Shown piece after piece: positions 845 through 8,983 of a stretch of 39,854 bases of DNA. The notes under the pieces were generated by a model, which was not told where the DNA came from, did no database searches, and saw only the letters and a list, made by a program, of their open reading frames with translations. Where the stretch lies: sequence record OZ035803.1. The stretch is one strand, 5' to 3'. Positions within the stretch are counted from its first letter, which is position 1; every line of letters starts with the position of its first letter. The DNA comes from Kayfunavirus LI10P1. A program made the position numbers and the translations under genes.

Positions 845-2604
845 GTAAAGATTTAGTGGCGCGTCAGGCGCTAATGACTGCCCGTATGAAGGCAGACTTC
901 GTGTTCTTCCTGTTCGTCCTGTGGAAAGCTCTGTCACTACCAGTCCCGACTCGCTGTCAGATTGACATGGCGAAGAAACTATCGGCTGAGGACAACAGGC
1001 GTTTCATCCTACAGGCGTTCCGTGGTATCGGGAAGTCATTCATTACGTGCGCATTCGTGGTATGGAAACTGTGGAACAACCCAGACTTGAAGTTCATGAT
1101 TGTGTCGGCCTCAAAGGAACGAGCCGATGCGAACTCCATCTTCATCAAGCGAATCATCGACCTCATGCCTCAGCTTCAGGAACTTAAACCTAAGCAGGGG
1201 CAGCGAGATGCGGTTATCAGCTTCGACGTTGGACCAGCCAAGCCAGATCACTCACCTTCGGTTAAGTCCGTTGGTATCACTGGTCAGTTGACTGGTAGTC
1301 GTGCTGACATCCTGATTGCCGATGACGTGGAGGTTCCGAACAACTCAGCGACTCAGGCTGCACGAGACCGTCTGTCAGAGCTTGTGAAAGAGTTCGACGC
1401 TATCCTGAAGCCGGGAGGTACAATCATCTATCTGGGTACTCCTCAGAACGAGATGACCTTGTATCGTGAGCTGGAAGGCCGAGGATACACCACTACTATC
1501 TGGCCTGCTCGTTATCCACGCGATAAGAAGGACTGGCAGTCTTACGGCGACCGTCTGGCTCCTATGCTTCAGGCAGAGCTGGAAGAGGACCCTGAGTCCT
1601 TCTACTGGCGTCCGACCGATGAAGTACGATTCGATGATACGGACCTGAAGGAACGTGAGCTGTCCTATGGTAAAGCTGGATTCGCTCTACAGTTCATGCT
1701 TAACCCAAACCTGAGTGATGCTGAGAAGTACCCTCTGAAGCTCCGTGACCTTATCGTAGCCGACTTGGACCCAGCGTCTAGCCCAATGGTATACCAATGG
1801 CTTCCTAACCCTCAGAACAAGCGTGAGGACGTTCCTAACGTTGGACTCATGGGTGACTCATACCACACGTATCAGACTGTAGGTTCTGCCTTCAGCTCAT
1901 ACACCCAGAAGATTCTGGTCATTGACCCTAGTGGTCGTGGTAAGGATGAAACTGGTTATGCGGTACTGTACCAGCTCAACGGCTACATCTTCGCTATGGA
2001 AGTTGGTGGTATGCGTGGTGGCTATGAAGACTCTACGCTGGAAGCATTGGCTAAGATTGGTCGTAAGTGGAAGGTCAACGAATACGTCATTGAGGGTAAC
2101 TTCGGTGATGGTATGTACCTTGAGCTATTCAAGCCTGTAGCGGCCCGTATACATCCTGCTGCTGTAACTGAAGTGAAGAGTAAGGGTCAGAAAGAACTCC
2201 GCATCTGTGACGTTCTGGAGCCTATCATGGGGTCTCACCGACTTATCGTCAACGCTGCTGCTATCGTACAAGATTACCAGTTGGCCTCTGATAAGGATGG
2301 TGTTCGTAACCCTATCTACTCTCTCTTCTACCAGATGACACGTATCTCTCGTGAACGTGGAGCATTGGCACACGATGACCGACTTGATGCGCTGGCTATC
2401 GGTGTACAGTTCTTCGTTGAGTCTATGGCGAAGGATGCCAACAAAGGCGAACGTGAAGTCACTGAGGAGTGGCTGGAAGAACAGATGGAGAACCCACGGA
2501 AAGGCTTCGAGTCAATCCACACTGAGTTCTGGGACAATGGGGTCAGGGTAACTCACGATACTGACGACGAGATGGGACTAGGGTCCTACGTTACGTTCCA
2601 CTAG
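841..2604 (+). CDS. 19: Terminase large subunit / DNA maturation protein B (T7 gp19-like); probable TTG start
   Basis: 587-aa ORF collinear with T7 gp19 ([102 protein letters not shown]). AAGGAGGTGA lies 6 nt upstream of TTG 841; the next ATG (874) has no RBS and would truncate the conserved N-terminus. Confidence 0.95.
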
Positions 2605-2698
2605 CTGAATGAATAACTATAGGCGAAAACTGAATTAATAAGCAGTTAGTAACCTATAGTTACTACCAGCCTAACCTACTGTTTTATAAGGAGTTTGG

Positions 2699-2721
2699 AC
2701 TTAACTATCACTATAGGGAAG
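2699..2721 (+). promoter_or_regulatory. Phage RNAP promoter (phiOR-like, downstream of gene 19)
   Basis: acTTAACTATCACTATA-GGGAAG; matches the 11-member family (TAAACTATCACTATAGGGA) with one mismatch at -14; predicted +1 G at 2716. Confidence 0.75.
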
Positions 2722-2900
2722 ACCCCCGGTTACTTATAGTATTACTGTAGTGAATATACATATGCAGACTTTATGCAAGACCTTAGGAGGCAGACTCCGA
2801 GTTCTTACCTAAGGCTTGCACCGATGGAAGGAGGGTGATATTAATCATAATCCCTCCTATACAGATAGTAAAGACCATAGATACAGGAGGTATGTAGCAT

Positions 2901-3059
2901 ATGGCAAAGACCAAAGCTGTCCTTAAAGCTCTGGCGACCAATCGAGCTACATACAGGTTTCTTGCTGCTGTTCTACTTGCTGCTGGCGTTACTGCTGGAA
3001 GTCAGTGGGTCGGGTGGGTCGAGACTCTCGTATGTTCTCTGGTCTCTCAGTGTAATTAA
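2901..3059 (+). CDS. 19.5: Small membrane protein (T7 gp19.5-like)
   Basis: 52-aa ORF not in the supplied track (below its length cut-off), RBS AGGAGG 2886-2891; MAKTKAVLKALATNRATYRFLAAVLLAAGV.. resembles T7 gp19.5 (..RVTYRFLVVL..) as recalled; last gene before the genome right end as in T7. Confidence 0.6.
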   Translation: MAKTKAVLKALATNRATYRFLAAVLLAAGVTAGSQWVGWVETLVCSLVSQCN

Positions 3060-3128
3060 CGCAATCATAGTAACGATTCATGAGCGGAAGACCTAAGGTC
3101 AGTACGTGGATAAAGACTCACTCTACTG

Positions 3129-3270
3129 ACCTTAGCTACTGTAGGTCAAGGACTTTAGGTAACACCTTAATAGAAGCTCACTTAGGGTCATCCTACTTAT
3201 TGGTCTATCCTAGTGTCGCCTGACCTACGGTCCTTGACCTACAGTAGCTGCCACCTACGGTCACTCGATG
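3129..3270. repeat. Short repeats (CCTAC[A/G]GT[C/A]) left of the predicted terminal repeat, i.e. right genome end
   Basis: Direct copies at 3224-3232 (cctacggtc), 3238-3246 (cctacagta), 3254-3262 (cctacggtc), plus an inverted copy in gctactgtaggtcaagg near 3140-3156. Confidence 0.5.
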
Positions 3271-3298
3271 AGTTTTGGACCAAAAGTTTGAGACCACA

Positions 3299-3478
3299 TC
3301 TCACAGTTCAAGAACCTCAAGTCTCCCCATAGGCCCTCTTTCAGTCCAGACAAAGGCCCTACCCCCAGTCTATCATAAGGCTGGACCGATGGTCAAGACG
3401 TTAGGTCAACGATAGGTCTAGGCTATGGCTGGAGGTCAGGACGATAGGTAGGGACTATGGGTCTGCCTCTGAGTCCCT
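3299..3478. repeat. Predicted direct terminal repeat (single copy in this circular assembly); physical left end at about 3299
   Basis: TCTCACAGTTCAAGAACCTCAAGTCTCCCCATAGGCCC at 3299 parallels the T7 left-end sequence TCTCACAGTGTACGGACCTAAAGTTCCCCCATAGGGGG; ..CTCTGAGTCCCT ending at 3478 parallels the end of the T7 repeat (..CTCTGTGTCCCT). Boundaries are by analogy only. Confidence 0.45.
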
Positions 3479-3515
3479 ATCTGTATAGTGATATAGTATA
3501 ACATTACGTCCTACA

Positions 3516-3611
3516 CCTACAGTCTAACTAACCTACAGTCATTGACTCCTGCTGTACCTACAGTCACCGACCATCGGTAAAGCCATTACCTACAGTCAAA
3601 GACCTACAGTC
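3516..3611. repeat. Array of five direct 9-mer repeats CCTACAGTC just inside the left end
   Basis: Exact copies at 3516, 3532, 3557, 3589 and 3603 with irregular 14-32 nt spacing; analogous in position to the ACCTAAAG-type repeats next to the T7 terminal repeat. Confidence 0.6.
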
Positions 3612-3723
3612 TAACGACACAAAGCTATAGACTTAAGGTCTAATACATGTTAGTCAAAGACTATATCCTCTTAGTCACTATGGGGCCGACGATAGCTTAA
3701 TCAATATTATTTAAGATTACCTA

Positions 3724-3752
3724 TTGACTACAGGTCCAGACTATGGCTTAAT
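3724..3752 (+). promoter_or_regulatory. Host sigma70-type early promoter (T7 A1-like)
   Basis: -35 TTGACT (3724-3729), 17-nt spacer, -10 CTTAAT (weak); flanking sequence ..ccggataagtagacagcctgataagtc.. closely parallels the T7 A1-A2 region. Confidence 0.45.
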
Positions 3753-3864
3753 AGCTTCCGTCAACACGACACGGCAACAACCGGATAGTGAAGACGCCGG
3801 GTCATCCCGGTTAAGTAGACAGCCTGATAAGTCATACGAACAACAGGCAGATGACAGAAAGTAG

Positions 3865-3894
3865 TTGACAAGATGTACCGACTTAAAGTAGTAT
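3865..3894 (+). promoter_or_regulatory. Host sigma70-type early promoter (T7 A2/A3-like)
   Basis: -35 TTGACA (3865-3870), 18-nt spacer, -10 TAGTAT (3889-3894), followed by gtaccacat..gctctttaacaatctgg, which parallels the sequence downstream of T7 A3. Confidence 0.55.
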
Positions 3895-4011
3895 GTACCA
3901 CATCAACACGAAACAACGGTGACGACCAACACTGAAACGGTCTACCTGAAGTCCTCTGACTGAAGGGAATGCTCTTTAACAATCTGGATAAACTCTTAAT
4001 GTGCGCCGATA

Positions 4012-4070
4012 GCGACTAACTACAGGGCCTTTGAGTCTACATCTGAAGGCCCTGACTGATAGTCACTAAC
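4012..4070 (+). promoter_or_regulatory. Early-region conserved hairpin element, copy 1 (probable RNA processing site)
   Basis: gcgactaactaCAGGGCCTTtgagtctacatctgAAGGCCCTGactgatagtcactaac: 9-bp stem with 14-nt loop, immediately upstream of the RBS of the first early ORF. Confidence 0.45.
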
Positions 4071-4086
4071 TTAAAGGATGGACACT

Positions 4087-4332
4087 ATGAAACACTTAAG
4101 CACAATCACTAACAGCAATGAAGTATTCGTGAACACTAAAGGCTATGCGTGGATTCAGCTTAAAGAGATGACAGGAGCGCGTCACCGTGTGGTAGTGCGC
4201 AAGGTATCAAGCAAGCCGTTCAGCAACTACAGCGTAGATACTGTGCGCATAGACAACGAGACATACCTGATAGATTCGCAGATAACCGTGAGTCCTACAG
4301 CGGGCGTCTCAGCTCCTTATTTCGCTAACTGA
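4087..4332 (+). CDS. Hypothetical early protein (first early gene, upstream of ocr)
   Basis: 81-aa ORF (track ORF 4078..4332; ATG 4087 preferred because AGGA is 9 nt upstream); lies between a host promoter plus hairpin and ocr; no recognisable motif. Confidence 0.6.
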   Translation: MKHLSTITNSNEVFVNTKGYAWIQLKEMTGARHRVVVRKVSSKPFSNYSVDTVRIDNETYLIDSQITVSPTAGVSAPYFAN

Positions 4333-4336
4333 GAGT

Positions 4337-4390
4337 GATTAACTACAGGTCGTTAGACTCATAGCGGCCTGACTGATAGGCACTAACACA
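4337..4390 (+). promoter_or_regulatory. Early-region conserved hairpin element, copy 2 (covarying stem)
   Basis: gattaactaCAGGTCGTTagactcatAGCGGCCTGactgataggcactaac: arms pair over 9 positions using two G-U wobbles; flanks (gattaactacagg / gactgatag-cactaac) are conserved with copies 1 and 3. Confidence 0.45.
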
Positions 4391-4415
4391 TACTTAACTT
4401 TGAGAGGATATAACT

Positions 4416-4922
4416 ATGGAACGTAACGCTAACGCATACTATGAGCTGCTGGCTGCAACCGTTGAGGCATTTATCGAGCGTATTCAGTACGACCACCTGA
4501 CTCAAGATGACGACTACAGCGATGCGCTGCATGAGGTCGTAGGCGGTCAGGTCCCGCACTATTACCACGAGATTTTCACGGTGATGGCTGCTGATGGTAT
4601 AGACCACGAGTTCGAAGACTCTGGGCTGATGCCTGAAACCAAGGACGTAACGCGTATCCTACAAGCTCGCATCTATGAGGCGCTTTATAACGATGTGTCT
4701 AATAGCTTGGATGTAGTCTGGTTTGAGGATGAAGAGGCAGACGAAGAGGATGAATATTGGGTAGTTGACGCTAAAACAGGCGCAATAATTGTGCAAGCTG
4801 TAGCTCTTGAGGTCGCTACTGCATGTGCCAAGGTTAACTATGCGGCAGGTCGCCACCTGAAGGTGGAAGACATCAATGATAACGTAGTGTTCGACCCTGC
4901 GGCTGAGGACTGCGAGCGATGA
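4416..4922 (+). CDS. ocr: Ocr-like DNA-mimic anti-restriction protein (T7 gp0.3 homolog) with a C-terminal extension
   Basis: Residues about 20-115 align with T7 Ocr as recalled ([43 protein letters not shown] versus T7 [43 protein letters not shown]); acidic stretch [10 protein letters not shown]; about 50 extra C-terminal residues; RBS GAGAGGA. Confidence 0.85.
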
Positions 4923-5089
4923 TAACTTACGGTTTATGCCAGCACCACGTCACCAACGCCCGACTTATGGTCAAGACCGGGCGATTAAACCACGAGGAGT
5001 CTATGCGTCTCTTGAAAGTGGTCTACAGGAGACGCAAGCGCATACACGACAGCTTACACTCTGAGGATAACCAACAATGTACCAGATAA
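4919..5089 (+). CDS. Hypothetical small basic protein (56 aa); weakly supported
   Basis: ATG overlaps the ocr stop (ATGA); [28 protein letters not shown]..; no strong RBS; not in the supplied track (below its length cut-off). Confidence 0.3.
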
Positions 5090-5160
5090 CTTATAGCAGT
5101 GAACAGGCATTCTACGATGGGTGCTACGAGCTGATGAAGCGCGATACTTGCTAGCGATAG

Positions 5161-5218
5161 TGATTAACTACAGGGTCTTTGAGTCTACATCTGAAGGCCC
5201 TGACTGATAGTCACTAAC
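5161..5218 (+). promoter_or_regulatory. Early-region conserved hairpin element, copy 3
   Basis: tgattaactaCAGGGTCTTtgagtctacatctgAAGGCCCTGactgatagtcactaac: near-identical to copy 1 with a C-to-T change that keeps pairing as G-U; directly upstream of the ORF at 5235. Confidence 0.45.
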
Positions 5219-5234
5219 AACTGAGAGGACAGAT

Positions 5235-5462
5235 ATGAACACAATCACTGGTGCCATAGCCAAAGGTTTTCGAGCAATTTTCAGTGAATCGCAAGAAGTA
5301 TGCACCAATCATAAATTCGTACTTTCTTGCGTAGTAGGGGACGAGTTTGACGGATTCGATAAACTGGTGGTTTGCGACCATTGTGGACAAGAGGCTATCC
5401 AACGCTCAAACGGTAAATTTGAATTAATAGACGATAGCCTTACAGAAGGAGACGGCGAGTAA
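5235..5462 (+). CDS. Hypothetical early protein (75 aa), Cys-containing
   Basis: RBS GAGAGGA 8 nt upstream; contains C..C and CDHC (possible metal-binding); no recognisable homolog from memory. Confidence 0.55.
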   Translation: MNTITGAIAKGFRAIFSESQEVCTNHKFVLSCVVGDEFDGFDKLVVCDHCGQEAIQRSNGKFELIDDSLTEGDGE

Positions 5463-5594
5463 CCTAGATAAACAGGAGAGAACCAAATCGTAGCTTGACC
5501 ATAACGCTGACAGGTGGATACTGAGTGATAGACGAGAGGTCATCGACTGATAGGTGGCCTCAAAGATTACCACTTACATTAATAGGAGTTAACT

Positions 5595-5684
5595 ATGAAT
5601 ATCGGTTACTGGGTGTGCTTATCTCCGGTCATCTTTCTGATAGGGTATGGGATATACGACTGTATTAAACGGAAATCACTATGA
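5595..5684 (+). CDS. Putative small hydrophobic peptide (29 aa)
   Basis: RBS TAGGAG 5584-5589; MNIGYWVCLSPVIFLIGYGIYDCIKRKSL (single predicted transmembrane segment); stop overlaps the next ATG (ATGA); below the track cut-off. Confidence 0.3.
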   Translation: MNIGYWVCLSPVIFLIGYGIYDCIKRKSL

Positions 5685-5878
5685 GTCTTGCACTATTGAT
5701 AGCCATAGGCTATGGACTTATCGCATACGTGCTGGTGAGAGACATCAACAAGGCACGTAAAGTCTATAAATTCAACTATGTACGTATGGTCCGCTGGACT
5801 GTACGTCAACCTAACGGACGATTCCTGCGCAATTTAGCGAACGTCTGGGATATAGCAACTCTTGGGAGCAAACTGTAA
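5681..5878 (+). CDS. Hypothetical early membrane protein (65 aa)
   Basis: N-terminal hydrophobic segment LALLIAIGYGLIAYVLV followed by a basic region; translationally coupled to its neighbours (overlapping stop/start). Confidence 0.5.
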   Translation: MSLALLIAIGYGLIAYVLVRDINKARKVYKFNYVRMVRWTVRQPNGRFLRNLANVWDIATLGSKL

Positions 5879-6204
5879 TGAACAAGTCATACGGGATTAA
5901 TCTGGTACACTCTATGGACGCAGAAATGAACATGTTAAGCCTACTGGCTACCGGGTATCGTCACGGAACGTCAAGTCACACCGCACGTCAACAGCAGGAG
6001 CGGGACCGTGTACTACAGGCGCGACTCCGGGCAGAGGGCCATAAGTCCGAACTGATGTGTCTGGCGTATGGTGGACGACCAATCACCGACGATGGTAAAC
6101 TTCTGGTATCAGGCTGGAAGGCGATAGACCAACGGTCAACCATCAAGCACACGACCAAAGGTGACTTCAGTCATCTTCACGCTAACCCACTGATATGCAA
6201 GTAA
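5878..6204 (+). CDS. Hypothetical early protein (108 aa), last gene before the RNAP gene
   Basis: ATG overlaps the previous stop (TAATG); no similarity to the T7 0.7 kinase as recalled; position corresponds to T7 genes 0.6-0.7. Confidence 0.55.
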   Translation: MNKSYGINLVHSMDAEMNMLSLLATGYRHGTSSHTARQQQERDRVLQARLRAEGHKSELMCLAYGGRPITDDGKLLVSGWKAIDQRSTIKHTTKGDFSHLHANPLICK

Positions 6205-6209
6205 TTATG

Positions 6210-6232
6210 ACTTAACTATCACTATAGGACTC
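6210..6232 (+). promoter_or_regulatory. Phage RNAP promoter immediately upstream of the RNAP gene
   Basis: acTTAACTATCACTATA-GGACTC, one mismatch to the family consensus (same variant as the promoters at 2699 and 29425); +1 G at 6227, 75 nt before ATG 6302. Confidence 0.65.
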
Positions 6233-6301
6233 AAGGTCTAAGACTCCAAGTGAAAGACCAAAGAGACTCTAAGTGAAAGACTAATAACAAGGACTTTAAG
6301 T

Positions 6302-8983
6302 ATGAGCGTCATCTCTATTGACAAACACGACTTCTCTGATGTGTCGAACGCCATTGAGCCGTTTAACCTGCTGGCTGACCACTACGGGCAAGACCTTGCA
6401 GTCAAACAGCTTCAGCTTGAGCATGAGGCATATACAGAAGGCGAGCGACGTTTCATCAAGAACCTTGAGCGGCAGACTGAGCGCGGGGAACTGGCAGACA
6501 ATCAGGTCGCCAAGCCTTTGATGCAGACTCTGGTCCCTAAGATTGCGCAAGCCGTCAGGGAGTGGCACGAAGGCCTAGACGGGAAGCTGTCAACCTCGCG
6601 TCCTAGCGTAGCGTTCACCATGTTGAGCACTGAAGAGAAGGCCGTAAAGGACCGCTCTATGCGCATCTCCTGTGAGTCCGCTGCGGTTATCATACTGAAG
6701 GTCATACTCTCCAAGCTGGTCAAGCCTGAAGGGATACCGATTACACCGATGGCCTCCGCGATAGGTCGCACACTTGAGGACGAAATCCGCTTCGGTCGCA
6801 TCCGTGACAAAGAGAAGGAGCACTTCAAGAAGGCGATAGCTGAGAACCTGAACAAGCGAGCTGGGGCATCCTACAAGAAAGCCTACATGCAAGCGGTCGA
6901 GGCGTCCATGCTGGAGCAAGGCCAACTGGAAGATGCATGGGGGACTTGGAGTCCTACAGAGGCTGTCCACGTTGGCATCAAGATGCTCGAGATTGTCATC
7001 CAGTCAACACAACTGGTCGAGCTTAAGCGGTACGGTGCTGGTAATGCAGCGGCTGACGTAGAGATGGTCCACCTGTCAGACTTCTGGGTCAAGAAGATGG
7101 CACAACGAGGATTCAGCCTTGCGGGTATCGCTCCAGTCTACCAGCCTTGCGTCGTTCCACCTAAGCCGTGGACTGGTGTCGTAGGTGGTGGGTACTGGGC
7201 CAAAGGTCGCAGACCGTTACCATTGATTCGCTTAGGGTCTAAGTCTGCGGTAGCACGTTATGAAGACGTATACATGCCTGAAGTCTATGACGCTGTGAAC
7301 ATCATTCAGAATACACCTTGGAAAGTTAACAAGAAGGTATTGGACGTGGTGAACATGGTCGAGAAGCTGAACAACACGCCTATTAATGACATCCCTCAGA
7401 TGGAACCGCTGAAGCCTGAGGACTATGCTGGTGAAACCGAGGAGGAACTCAAGGCATGGAAGAAGGCTGCTGCTGGTATCTATCGCCGCGAGAAGGCCAG
7501 ACAGTCACGCAGATTGTCCATGAGTTTCATCGTATCACAGGCCAACAAGTTCTCACAGTTTAAGGCCATCTGGTTCCCGTACAACATGGATTGGCGAGGT
7601 CGTGTCTACGCTGTCCCGATGTTCAACCCTCAGGGTAACGACATGCAGAAGGGTCTACTGACTCTGGCGGTCGGAAAGCCTATCGGGGCGGATGGTTTCA
7701 AATGGCTTAAAGTCCACACCGCCAACTGCGCGGGTGTCGATAAGGTAACCTTTGAGGAGCGTATCAAATGGGTGGAAGACAATCACGAGAACATTCTGGC
7801 AGCAGCCAAATCACCGATGGACAGCATCGAGTGGTGGGGGAGTATGGACAGCCCCTTCTGCTTCCTAGCGGCTTGCTTCGAGTATTCTGGGGTGATGAAC
7901 CATGGCTTGACCTACAATTGCTCACTTCCGATTGCCTTCGACGGCTCGTGTTCGGGGATTCAGCACTTCAGCGCGATGCTGAGGGACCACGTAGGCGGAC
8001 ATGCAGTGAACTTAACGCCGTCTGGTCAGGTGCAGGACATCTACCGTATAGTCTCAGACCGTGTGTCAGACCAGTTGAAAGAGCTATTACTGAGCGGTAC
8101 GGACGACGAGCTGGTGACCGTAGAGGACAAGAAGACTGGGGAAATCAGCGAACGCCTGAAGCTTGGGACCAAGAGTCTTGCGCGTCAGTGGCTGACATAC
8201 GGTATGTCACGCAAGGTCACTAAGCGTTCAGTCATGACTCTGGCATACGGGTCGAAAGAGTACGGATTCGCAGACCAAGTTTACGAGGACATCGTGATGC
8301 CAGCGATTGACTCAGGGTCTGGCGCTATGTTCACTGAACCAAGCCAAGCGTCTCGCTTCATGGCAAAGATGATTTGGGAAGCTGTGAGTGTGACAGTAGT
8401 TGCTGCGGTTGACGCGATGAAGTGGCTTCAAGGTGCTGCCAAGCTGCTGGCTGCTGAGGTGAAGGACAAGAAGACTGGAGAAATACTGAAGCCTTGCCTT
8501 CCGGTACACTGGGTCACACCTGATGGGTTCCCGGTCTGGCAGGAATACCGCAAGAAGGATACCACTCGTCTGAACCTGATGTTCTTAGGGTCCTTCAACC
8601 TTCAACCTACGGTCAACAAAGGTACGAAGAAAGAGCTGGACAAGCACAAGCAGGAGTCAGGCATTAGCCCTAACTTCGTCCACTCACAAGATGGTAGCCA
8701 CCTGCGGAAGACTGTAGTCCACACTCACCGCAAGTATGGCGTGATGTCATTCGCAGTGATTCACGATAGCTTCGGGACCATCCCTGCTGACGCTGAGTAT
8801 CTGTTCCGTGGTGTCCGTGAGACGATGGTCGAGACATACCGCGATAACGATGTGCTGCTTGACTTCTACGAGCAGTTTGAATACCAGCTTCATGAAAGCC
8901 AGCGCGACAAGTTGCCTGAGCTTCCGAAGAAAGGTAAACTGAATATCGAAGACATCTTGTCTTCAGACTTTGCATTCGCTTAA
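6302..8983 (+). CDS. 1: T7-type single-subunit DNA-dependent RNA polymerase
   Basis: 893-aa ORF collinear with T7 RNAP over its whole length (FNLLADHYG, RFGRIRDKEKEHFKK, PVYQPCVVPPKPWTG, WFPYNMDWRGRVYAV, LPIAFDGSCSGIQHFSAMLRD, TLAYGSKEYGF, HSQDGSHLRK, IHDSFGT, C-terminal FAFA). Confidence 0.97.
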   Translation: MSVISIDKHDFSDVSNAIEPFNLLADHYGQDLAVKQLQLEHEAYTEGERRFIKNLERQTERGELADNQVAKPLMQTLVPKIAQAVREWHEGLDGKLSTSRPSVAFTMLSTEEKAVKDRSMRISCESAAVIILKVILSKLVKPEGIPITPMASAIGRTLEDEIRFGRIRDKEKEHFKKAIAENLNKRAGASYKKAYMQAVEASMLEQGQLEDAWGTWSPTEAVHVGIKMLEIVIQSTQLVELKRYGAGNAAADVEMVHLSDFWVKKMAQRGFSLAGIAPVYQPCVVPPKPWTGVVGGGYWAKGRRPLPLIRLGSKSAVARYEDVYMPEVYDAVNIIQNTPWKVNKKVLDVVNMVEKLNNTPINDIPQMEPLKPEDYAGETEEELKAWKKAAAGIYRREKARQSRRLSMSFIVSQANKFSQFKAIWFPYNMDWRGRVYAVPMFNPQGNDMQKGLLTLAVGKPIGADGFKWLKVHTANCAGVDKVTFEERIKWVEDNHENILAAAKSPMDSIEWWGSMDSPFCFLAACFEYSGVMNHGLTYNCSLPIAFDGSCSGIQHFSAMLRDHVGGHAVNLTPSGQVQDIYRIVSDRVSDQLKELLLSGTDDELVTVEDKKTGEISERLKLGTKSLARQWLTYGMSRKVTKRSVMTLAYGSKEYGFADQVYEDIVMPAIDSGSGAMFTEPSQASRFMAKMIWEAVSVTVVAAVDAMKWLQGAAKLLAAEVKDKKTGEILKPCLPVHWVTPDGFPVWQEYRKKDTTRLNLMFLGSFNLQPTVNKGTKKELDKHKQESGISPNFVHSQDGSHLRKTVVHTHRKYGVMSFAVIHDSFGTIPADAEYLFRGVRETMVETYRDNDVLLDFYEQFEYQLHESQRDKLPELPKKGKLNIEDILSSDFAFA

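Follow-up and report, generated by a model that had tools for sequence, protein, structure and literature searches.

T7-like podophages house their known anti-restriction genes, ocr and the S-adenosylmethionine (SAM) lyase gene, at the left end of the genome, where genes are expressed in the order in which they enter the cell. In the T7 entry model, the left end leads the way into the cell and the remainder is drawn in by host RNA polymerase. The T7 gp0.3 protein, Ocr, is a helical DNA mimic that inhibits type I restriction and BREX, and the T3-type gp0.3, a SAM lyase, is an alternative early anti-restriction gene. Other small early T7 proteins, including gp0.4, gp0.6, gp0.7 and gp2, act on host machinery. 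Proteins of the lambda N type are intrinsically disordered, carry an arginine-rich RNA-binding motif and are needed for the use of nut-like leaders. Closest to the locus described here is gene 0.2 of phage K1F, which is annotated in one K1F record (AM084414; CAJ29341.1, 785-1030) and omitted from the other (DQ111067). Work aimed at phage therapy of K1 and UPEC strains makes use of K1F-like phages. We found no paper that mentions gp0.2 and, in the literature on K1F-like phages, no report of its expression. A transcriptome paper on the 'K1' phage vB_Eco_K1B4 contains nothing on gene 0.2 and does not use the word Kayfunavirus, and the gene 0.2 sequence is absent from the supplements of two papers reporting accessory-gene screens.

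Gene 0.2 in the LI10P1 genome

We analysed a stretch of 39,854 nucleotides from Kayfunavirus LI10P1 (OZ035803.1), hereafter the window, which contains the genome of a K1F-like podophage of the T7 group in circularly permuted form. Its landmarks include a large terminase gene (841-2604) and an RNA polymerase gene (6302-8983). Nucleotide 1 of K1F aligns with window position 3299, putting the physical left terminus of the mature genome at about 3299, and gene 0.2 starts ~789 nt from this end. The 10-mer ACCTACAGTC matches the window 24 times with at most one mismatch (3.5 expected), and ten of these matches fall within two clusters, at 3137-3262 and 3515-3611, that flank the inferred end and resemble the short repeat arrays beside the terminal repeats of T7. 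The locus itself carries the following features.

4074-4081, plus strand: Shine-Dalgarno sequence AAGGATGG, read directly from the sequence
4087-4332, plus strand: gene 0.2 homologue, encoding an 81-residue basic protein of PHROG 10124, predicted to be all-beta
4416-4922, plus strand: Ocr-like DNA-mimic anti-restriction gene, the second cistron (PF08684, E = 3e-30; PHROG 2568, E = 3e-53)

The first-pass annotation of this DNA had described an 81-residue reading frame at 4087-4332 with its own ribosome-binding site and an upstream hairpin, lying ahead of ocr. Sequence and translation bear out the exact position and length (ATG at 4087, TGA at 4330-4332; product MKHLST...YFAN). The Shine-Dalgarno core AAGGA (4074-4078) stands 8 nt 5' of the start codon, the hairpin is present at 4010-4068, and the next gene downstream does encode an Ocr homologue (168 residues, pI 4.1, 60% identity to T7 Ocr over 78 residues). 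Some annotators have started the gene at another in-frame ATG, at 4078, which would give 84 residues. We consider 4087 the better start because the upstream ATG overlaps the Shine-Dalgarno sequence itself and homologues from other phage groups begin MKHLS or MKKLS. The AAGGA-N8-ATG arrangement also recurs upstream of distant gene 0.2 homologues.

The reading frame is not new: it is already annotated as gene 0.2 of K1F. The two proteins are 97.5% identical over all 81 residues, and K1F positions 785-1030 correspond to window positions 4087-4332, in both phages between the leader hairpin and gene 0.3. They share family and locus with no substantive difference. Over the surrounding 1.5 kb, nucleotide identity is 97-99% to several Kayfunavirus records and 91% to K1F. 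The LI10P1 product matches PHROG 10124 along its whole length (hmmscan E = 1.7e-40; residues 1-81 against profile positions 1-77 of 77), as do all 48 aligned family members, and the family is annotated as 'unknown function'. JSS1_004 is a gp0.7-type kinase and not a relative. Both the gene and its family are thus already catalogued, and the gene 0.2 product is an uncharacterised addition to a familiar class, the small early accessory proteins of T7-like phages. What we add here is its coding constraint, its cassette boundaries and accessory status within the genus, its recurrent position as first cistron, a confident fold without known relatives and a conserved tail motif.

Promoters, boxA and hairpins of the early leader

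Upstream of gene 0.2 lies a leader resembling that of T7, and a second hairpin separates the gene from ocr.

3724-3752, plus strand: A1-like sigma-70 promoter (TTGACT, 17-nt spacer, CTTAAT), from alignment to the T7 A1 region
3865-3894, plus strand: A2-like sigma-70 promoter (TTGACA, 18-nt spacer, TAGTAT), 10 of 12 consensus positions matched
3970-3982, plus strand: rrn-type boxA TGCTCTTTAACAA, a Nus-factor antitermination signal by homology to T7 and consensus
4010-4068, plus strand: RNase III-type hairpin, copy 1, 5' of gene 0.2, from folding and alignment to T7
4334-4384, plus strand: hairpin copy 2, diverged, at the 3' end of the cassette, a putative processing site before ocr, from folding, compensatory changes and an indel boundary

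The A2-like site is the best promoter-like match within 2600-6400, and its surroundings align with T7 A2, including a conserved upstream block, GATAAGTAGACAGCCTGATAAGTC. The A1-like site has a weak -10 hexamer and was not called by a consensus scan; its assignment as a promoter is by homology. The boxA is a perfect match present in a single copy in the window, and it fits the gamma-proteobacterial consensus GYTCTTTAANA (PMC5725501). T7 carries the same 12-mer at 813-824, and it also precedes the gene 0.2 homologue in Kayfunavirus, Przondovirus and SP6-like loci. This suggests that Nus factors may modify host RNA polymerase on early phage transcripts. In some SP6-like loci, two to four boxA copies are spread across the early region (contig L023: 4751, 4936, 5495 and 6135).

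The first hairpin (dG -25.6 kcal/mol; z = -3.35 against shuffled sequences, rising to -4.0 with longer flanking sequence) aligns with the region of T7 immediately ahead of gene 0.3, known as the R0.3 RNase III site. Compensatory changes are found at 6 of 10 stem pairs across copies and phages. The window holds three copies (z = -2.0 to -3.4), the third at 5158-5216, and each is followed by an early cistron. The first and third hardly differ in sequence; the second is diverged and shows compensatory changes. Such repeats may serve as recombination substrates for the swapping of early cassettes. A search of 3300-6400 against Rfam returned no family match, and it is from T7 homology that we infer RNase III and boxA roles for these elements.

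Reading from the left end, the order is A1-like promoter, A2-like promoter, boxA, hairpin with Shine-Dalgarno, gene 0.2, second hairpin with Shine-Dalgarno, and ocr. Matches to the phage-polymerase promoter number 11, all on the plus strand and all outside 3299-6213, and the first one after gene 0.2 stands at 6214. These sites (AACTATCACTATAGGGA and variants; 0.1 expected) lie at 2703, 6214, 9534, 11220, 12300, 14667, 20928, 23767, 24755, 29429 and 36705, and the one at 6214-6230 sits just 5' of the RNA polymerase gene. The arrangement is that of T7 class I genes, with sigma-70 promoters near the left end and the first phage promoter downstream. Since no phage-polymerase promoter occurs from the left end to 6214, we assign gene 0.2 and ocr to class I, transcribed by host polymerase.

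An earlier gene has been annotated in K1F and LM33_P1 as gp0.1. Its equivalent in the window would span 3654-3869, where we find only a 46-residue reading frame with a TTG start (3724-3864). The gp0.1 frame overlaps the A1 and A2 promoters and carries a stop codon in CR44b, and the equivalent here is probably not a gene. The plus strand contains no reading frame of at least 30 residues from the A2-like promoter to 4078. With the promoters upstream, no earlier reading frame and gp0.1 discounted, gene 0.2 is the first cistron. Gene order and promoters therefore uphold its proposed place as the first early gene, at the head of the host-polymerase unit and ahead of ocr. By analogy with T7 entry, its product would also be the first phage protein made.

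Coding constraint

The window holds many spurious reading frames of 60-170 residues, and 81 codons alone are within chance. Because chance frames of this length are common, the status of gene 0.2 as a gene depends on comparison with relatives. By tblastn, it is present in 117 phage records and full-length in 116 of them, and copies are intact in four unrelated genome contexts. Among Kayfunavirus copies, dN/dS ranges from 0.08 to 0.39 (Nei-Gojobori), which rules out a chance reading frame. When Kayfunavirus, Phapecoctavirus, Przondovirus and phiKT are compared, synonymous differences are saturated (pS 0.72-1.0) and nonsynonymous differences are not (pN 0.19-0.28), and 70-77% of residues are retained between phage groups despite this saturation. 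Constraint extends to the end of the protein: within the last 13 codons, the sequence A-P-Y-F-x-N is kept across six to seven synonymous codon changes. Judged by these comparisons, gene 0.2 is a real gene under purifying selection at the amino-acid level. The first-pass annotation had named lack of conservation among close relatives as grounds for abandoning its proposal; the gene is conserved, though carried by only about one-third of the genus.

An optional early cassette

CR44b, YZ1 and PRF-SP9 have RNA polymerases 90-92% identical to that of the window and lack gene 0.2. In these phages, a near-identical boxA and hairpin are joined directly to the Shine-Dalgarno sequence of the next gene. 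The extra segment in the window, ~4069-4384, consists of a Shine-Dalgarno sequence, the reading frame and the diverged second hairpin. As it ends in one hairpin and is preceded by another, hairpin copies flank the insertion. There is strong support for regarding this unit of Shine-Dalgarno sequence, reading frame and hairpin copy as a movable cassette, gained or lost at the junction of a constant leader with the next gene.

Some 69 records carry a copy with at least 90% identity, compared with ~218 that share most of the RNA polymerase gene, a carriage of roughly one-third of Kayfunavirus records that is only approximate as the polymerase set may extend past the genus. Phages with and without gene 0.2 are intermixed when ordered by RNA polymerase similarity, a pattern suggestive of repeated events of gain, loss or recombination. 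The neighbours of the cassette also vary. In LS3, a PHROG 9817 reading frame stands between gene 0.2 and a short ocr. Cronobacter phage B1 and Enterobacter phage 02 pair gene 0.2 with PHROG 11084 and have no ocr, and in YZ1, PHROG 11084 comes first. Gene 0.2 thus occurs either with Ocr or with PHROG 11084 in its place, which argues that it does not depend on Ocr.

Predicted fold and C-terminal tail

The gene 0.2 product is a 9.1-kDa basic protein (pI 9.45, GRAVY -0.26). Structure prediction, which the first-pass annotation had proposed as a check, gave a confident all-beta model (AlphaFold2 with a 48-sequence alignment: pLDDT 86.8, pTM 0.73), in which residues 1-70 form a seven-strand beta meander (pLDDT ~90) followed by a low-confidence tail. 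An earlier model from a shallower alignment had reached a pLDDT of only 70.

The same annotation's statement that no similarity could be recognised holds for anything of known function. The window protein had no match in Pfam (E up to 1, including the Tad, Acr and Ard families), NCBIfam or PADLOC, and nothing rose above noise in a sequence search of the PDB, these annotation searches being run with both the single sequence and a profile. A fold search of the PDB likewise returned no structural analogue. The only structural neighbours were models in BFVD (Foldseek probability 1.0, TM 0.57-0.72), namely small proteins of Lelliottia phage phD2B, Acinetobacter phages vB_AbaP_B09_Aci08 and APK87, and Proteus phage PmP19. 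All are uncharacterised, with 15-26% identity to the gene 0.2 product, and the phD2B protein is also a sequence relative, encoded ~1 kb from its genome end.

Conservation across the family is highest at L4, S5, R38, S42, F45-S46-N47, Y60 and D63, within the motif RK-x-x-S-K-x-FSN-x-S-x-DTVR...YLIDS. The C-terminal tail A-P-Y-F-x-N is strongly supported as conserved in sequence and, from the model, as flexible. An APYF tail is found in Kayfunavirus, Przondovirus, Phapecoctavirus, phiKT and some N4-like branches and is absent from the SP6-like branch. It looks like a docking peptide.

Distribution of the family

An exhaustive profile HMM search of 1.84 billion representative proteins returned 17 matches, mostly small proteins. 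Two large proteins with multi-stretch matches (1,147 and 6,670 residues) were set aside, on pattern alone, as probable repeat noise. One match, P0049 (189 residues), combines a gp0.2-like domain at residues 8-70 with a C-terminal extension of ~120 residues, for which a sub-threshold match to DUF7447 was the only hit. A word-indexed search with a broader profile identified 77 proteins, all small and all on phage-sized contigs of ~38-46 kb or ~140-150 kb. A scan not seeded with the broader alignment turned up no relative among the genomes of 185,579 bacterial and archaeal species. On these searches, the gene 0.2 family is phage-only.

Other podophage lineages also carry relatives in first place. 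In Przondovirus, the homologue is the first reading frame after the leader. Six SP6-like metagenomic phages encode homologues at ~35% identity; the homologue is the first called gene in five and the second in the sixth. Where it is first, it lies upstream of the RNA polymerase gene and follows a silent gap of ~1-1.4 kb that itself comes after the tailspike genes. A boxA lies ~55 nt 5' of the homologue in four of the six phages. In GenBank, the SP6-like branch is essentially Lelliottia phage phD2B alone. In N4-like Gamaleyavirus, the early-region homologue has RNAP1 subunit genes on either side, and the Phapecoctavirus homologue lies within a run of small hypothetical genes. The phiKT homologue is annotated as similar to K1F gp0.2. 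As far as they were searched, T7, T3, SP6 and K1-5 yielded no homologue; the window contains no paralogue, and the left-end reading frames of T7 gave no match. Four records (PV615262, MT350292, PQ520054 and OR584014) contain near-identical Kayfunavirus or Phapecoctavirus sequences and state Acinetobacter baumannii, Enterococcus faecalis or Pseudomonas coronafaciens as hosts; these are probably host mis-assignments or contaminants.

Candidate functions of gene 0.2

Our preferred reading, held tentatively, is that gene 0.2 is a functional but optional immediate-early gene of K1F-like phages whose product binds a host macromolecule, our best guess being a host protein bound in the service of anti-defence or host takeover. 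A small, non-enzymatic protein that is made earliest, is optional and is exchanged among unrelated virulent phages of Enterobacteriaceae is most plausibly a binder of this kind. The gene lies ~0.8 kb from the end that, by homology to K1F and T7, enters the cell first, and it is the first cistron for host RNA polymerase, ahead of ocr. The product would then act stoichiometrically during the opening minute of infection on a macromolecule conserved among enterobacteria, to which it would bind, probably docking in part through its tail. We would most expect it to counter, without help from Ocr, either an anti-phage defence or another barrier that the host raises early. Taken by itself, an anti-defence or early-barrier role, the former already raised in the first-pass annotation, is something we would put slightly on the doubtful side of evenly balanced. 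No link to any defence system emerged from PADLOC or from the accessory-gene screen supplements, and no structural analogue turned up that would point to a binding partner. Further counterpoints bear on this role. The promoter-proximal slot could be a harmless insertion point for cassettes; about two-thirds of the genus, together with T7, T3, SP6 and K1-5 as searched, manage without the gene; and a small basic protein could equally bind nucleic acid.

Comparison with known early anti-restriction proteins shows both the appeal of an anti-defence role and how far the gene 0.2 product departs from them. Gene 0.2 holds the slot of T7 ocr, as the first cistron after the A promoters, boxA and the RNase III site, and by analogy its product, like Ocr, would be small and made immediately on entry. 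However, the two proteins share no sequence similarity, the gene 0.2 product is predicted to be all-beta rather than helical, and it is basic where the Ocr homologue is acidic. It has no match to PF08684 and, at pI 9.45 against 4.1, lacks the acidic character of an Ocr-type DNA mimic, and a genuine Ocr homologue is encoded by the very next gene. Nor does it resemble the T3-type SAM lyase, as an 81-residue beta protein with no similarity and no catalytic signature. In two SP6-like contigs, a SAM lyase gene (PF23780) lies a few genes 3' of the homologue.

A more ambitious version of the anti-defence reading, which we consider unlikely as a whole, is that PHROG 10124 comprises immediate-early effectors of a new class whose fold is absent from the PDB. 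Selection would hold the gene in first place in no fewer than three lineages of podophages (Kayfunavirus, Przondovirus and SP6-like phages have a homologue in the first slot), and the effector, docking by its conserved C-terminal APYF peptide, would knock out a defence or sensor common among enterobacteria ahead of any action by Ocr or SAM lyase.

The alternative that survives best, although we also think it unlikely, is host takeover, in which the protein would inhibit or redirect RNA polymerase, division, the nucleoid, translation or proteolysis. Location class and size match those of the small early genes of T7. Conservation across phage families that infect Escherichia, Klebsiella, Enterobacter, Cronobacter and Lelliottia would fit a housekeeping target, and the early-region position in N4-like phages fits takeover genes. 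Against this, there is no similarity to any T7 left-end reading frame, and the gene is patchy within its genus, though non-essential takeover genes are patchy too. Whether the target is a defence or host machinery, occupancy of the first slot in several lineages and presence in four unrelated groups of virulent enterobacterial phages, combined with no known fold relative, make this family a well-defined counter-defence or host-takeover candidate.

We give a distinctly lower probability to a role as a nucleic-acid helper for the phage itself, whether as a boxA/Nus cofactor, a chaperone or modulator of the RNase III hairpin, or a protector of DNA ends. The product is basic, the gene directly follows boxA and the hairpin in Kayfunavirus, Przondovirus and SP6-like phages, and on a beta strand R38 is invariant and K39 conserved. 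As the first gene after a boxA leader with an RNA hairpin, encoding a small basic protein, gene 0.2 also recalls lambda N, a resemblance of layout that serves as analogy only. Yet T7 has the boxA and hairpin leader too, and relatives devoid of the gene keep it in identical form; a leader that stays intact in such phages does not need the protein. This weakens the N-like analogy and led us to reject an N-like antiterminator. The product is also predicted to be a folded beta protein with no arginine-rich motif. The Phapecoctavirus and N4-like homologues stand in a different transcription context, and no match to known RNA- or DNA-binding folds was found.

Less probable still is a part in competition between phages, with the protein made first against co-infecting phages as a superinfection-exclusion factor. 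An accessory, immediate-early gene shared horizontally among unrelated virulent coliphages would suit this role. However, many exclusion proteins act at the envelope, and the sequence (GRAVY -0.26) shows neither an evident signal peptide nor a membrane segment. That there is no functional protein at all, the frame being a chance one, a decaying remnant or a translated spacer that sets ocr expression, fits its omission from DQ111067 and the frequency of same-size chance frames but is effectively refuted by purifying selection on the amino-acid sequence alongside saturated synonymous sites, by intact, full-length copies in nearly all records and four unrelated contexts, and by a confident fold drawn from alignment co-variation.

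To return to the preferred anti-defence reading, an optional first gene that altered host range or defence evasion would have practical relevance for therapy. If gene 0.2 were neutral on all hosts, it would be ordinary, one of many hypothetical early reading frames.

Neighbouring early genes

The Ocr homologue of the window is longer than T7 Ocr (168 versus 117 residues), and the Pfam ocr domain spans only residues 8-94. Its C-terminal ~70 residues form an extra segment that includes an acidic stretch. Relatives carry short forms of 111 residues (LS3) and 114 residues (CR44b). PHROG 11084, the 174-residue protein that replaces Ocr in YZ1, Cronobacter phage B1 and Enterobacter phage 02 (loci L029, 778-1302; L016, 1716-2240; L017, 1463-1843), is another candidate early anti-restriction or host-directed gene.
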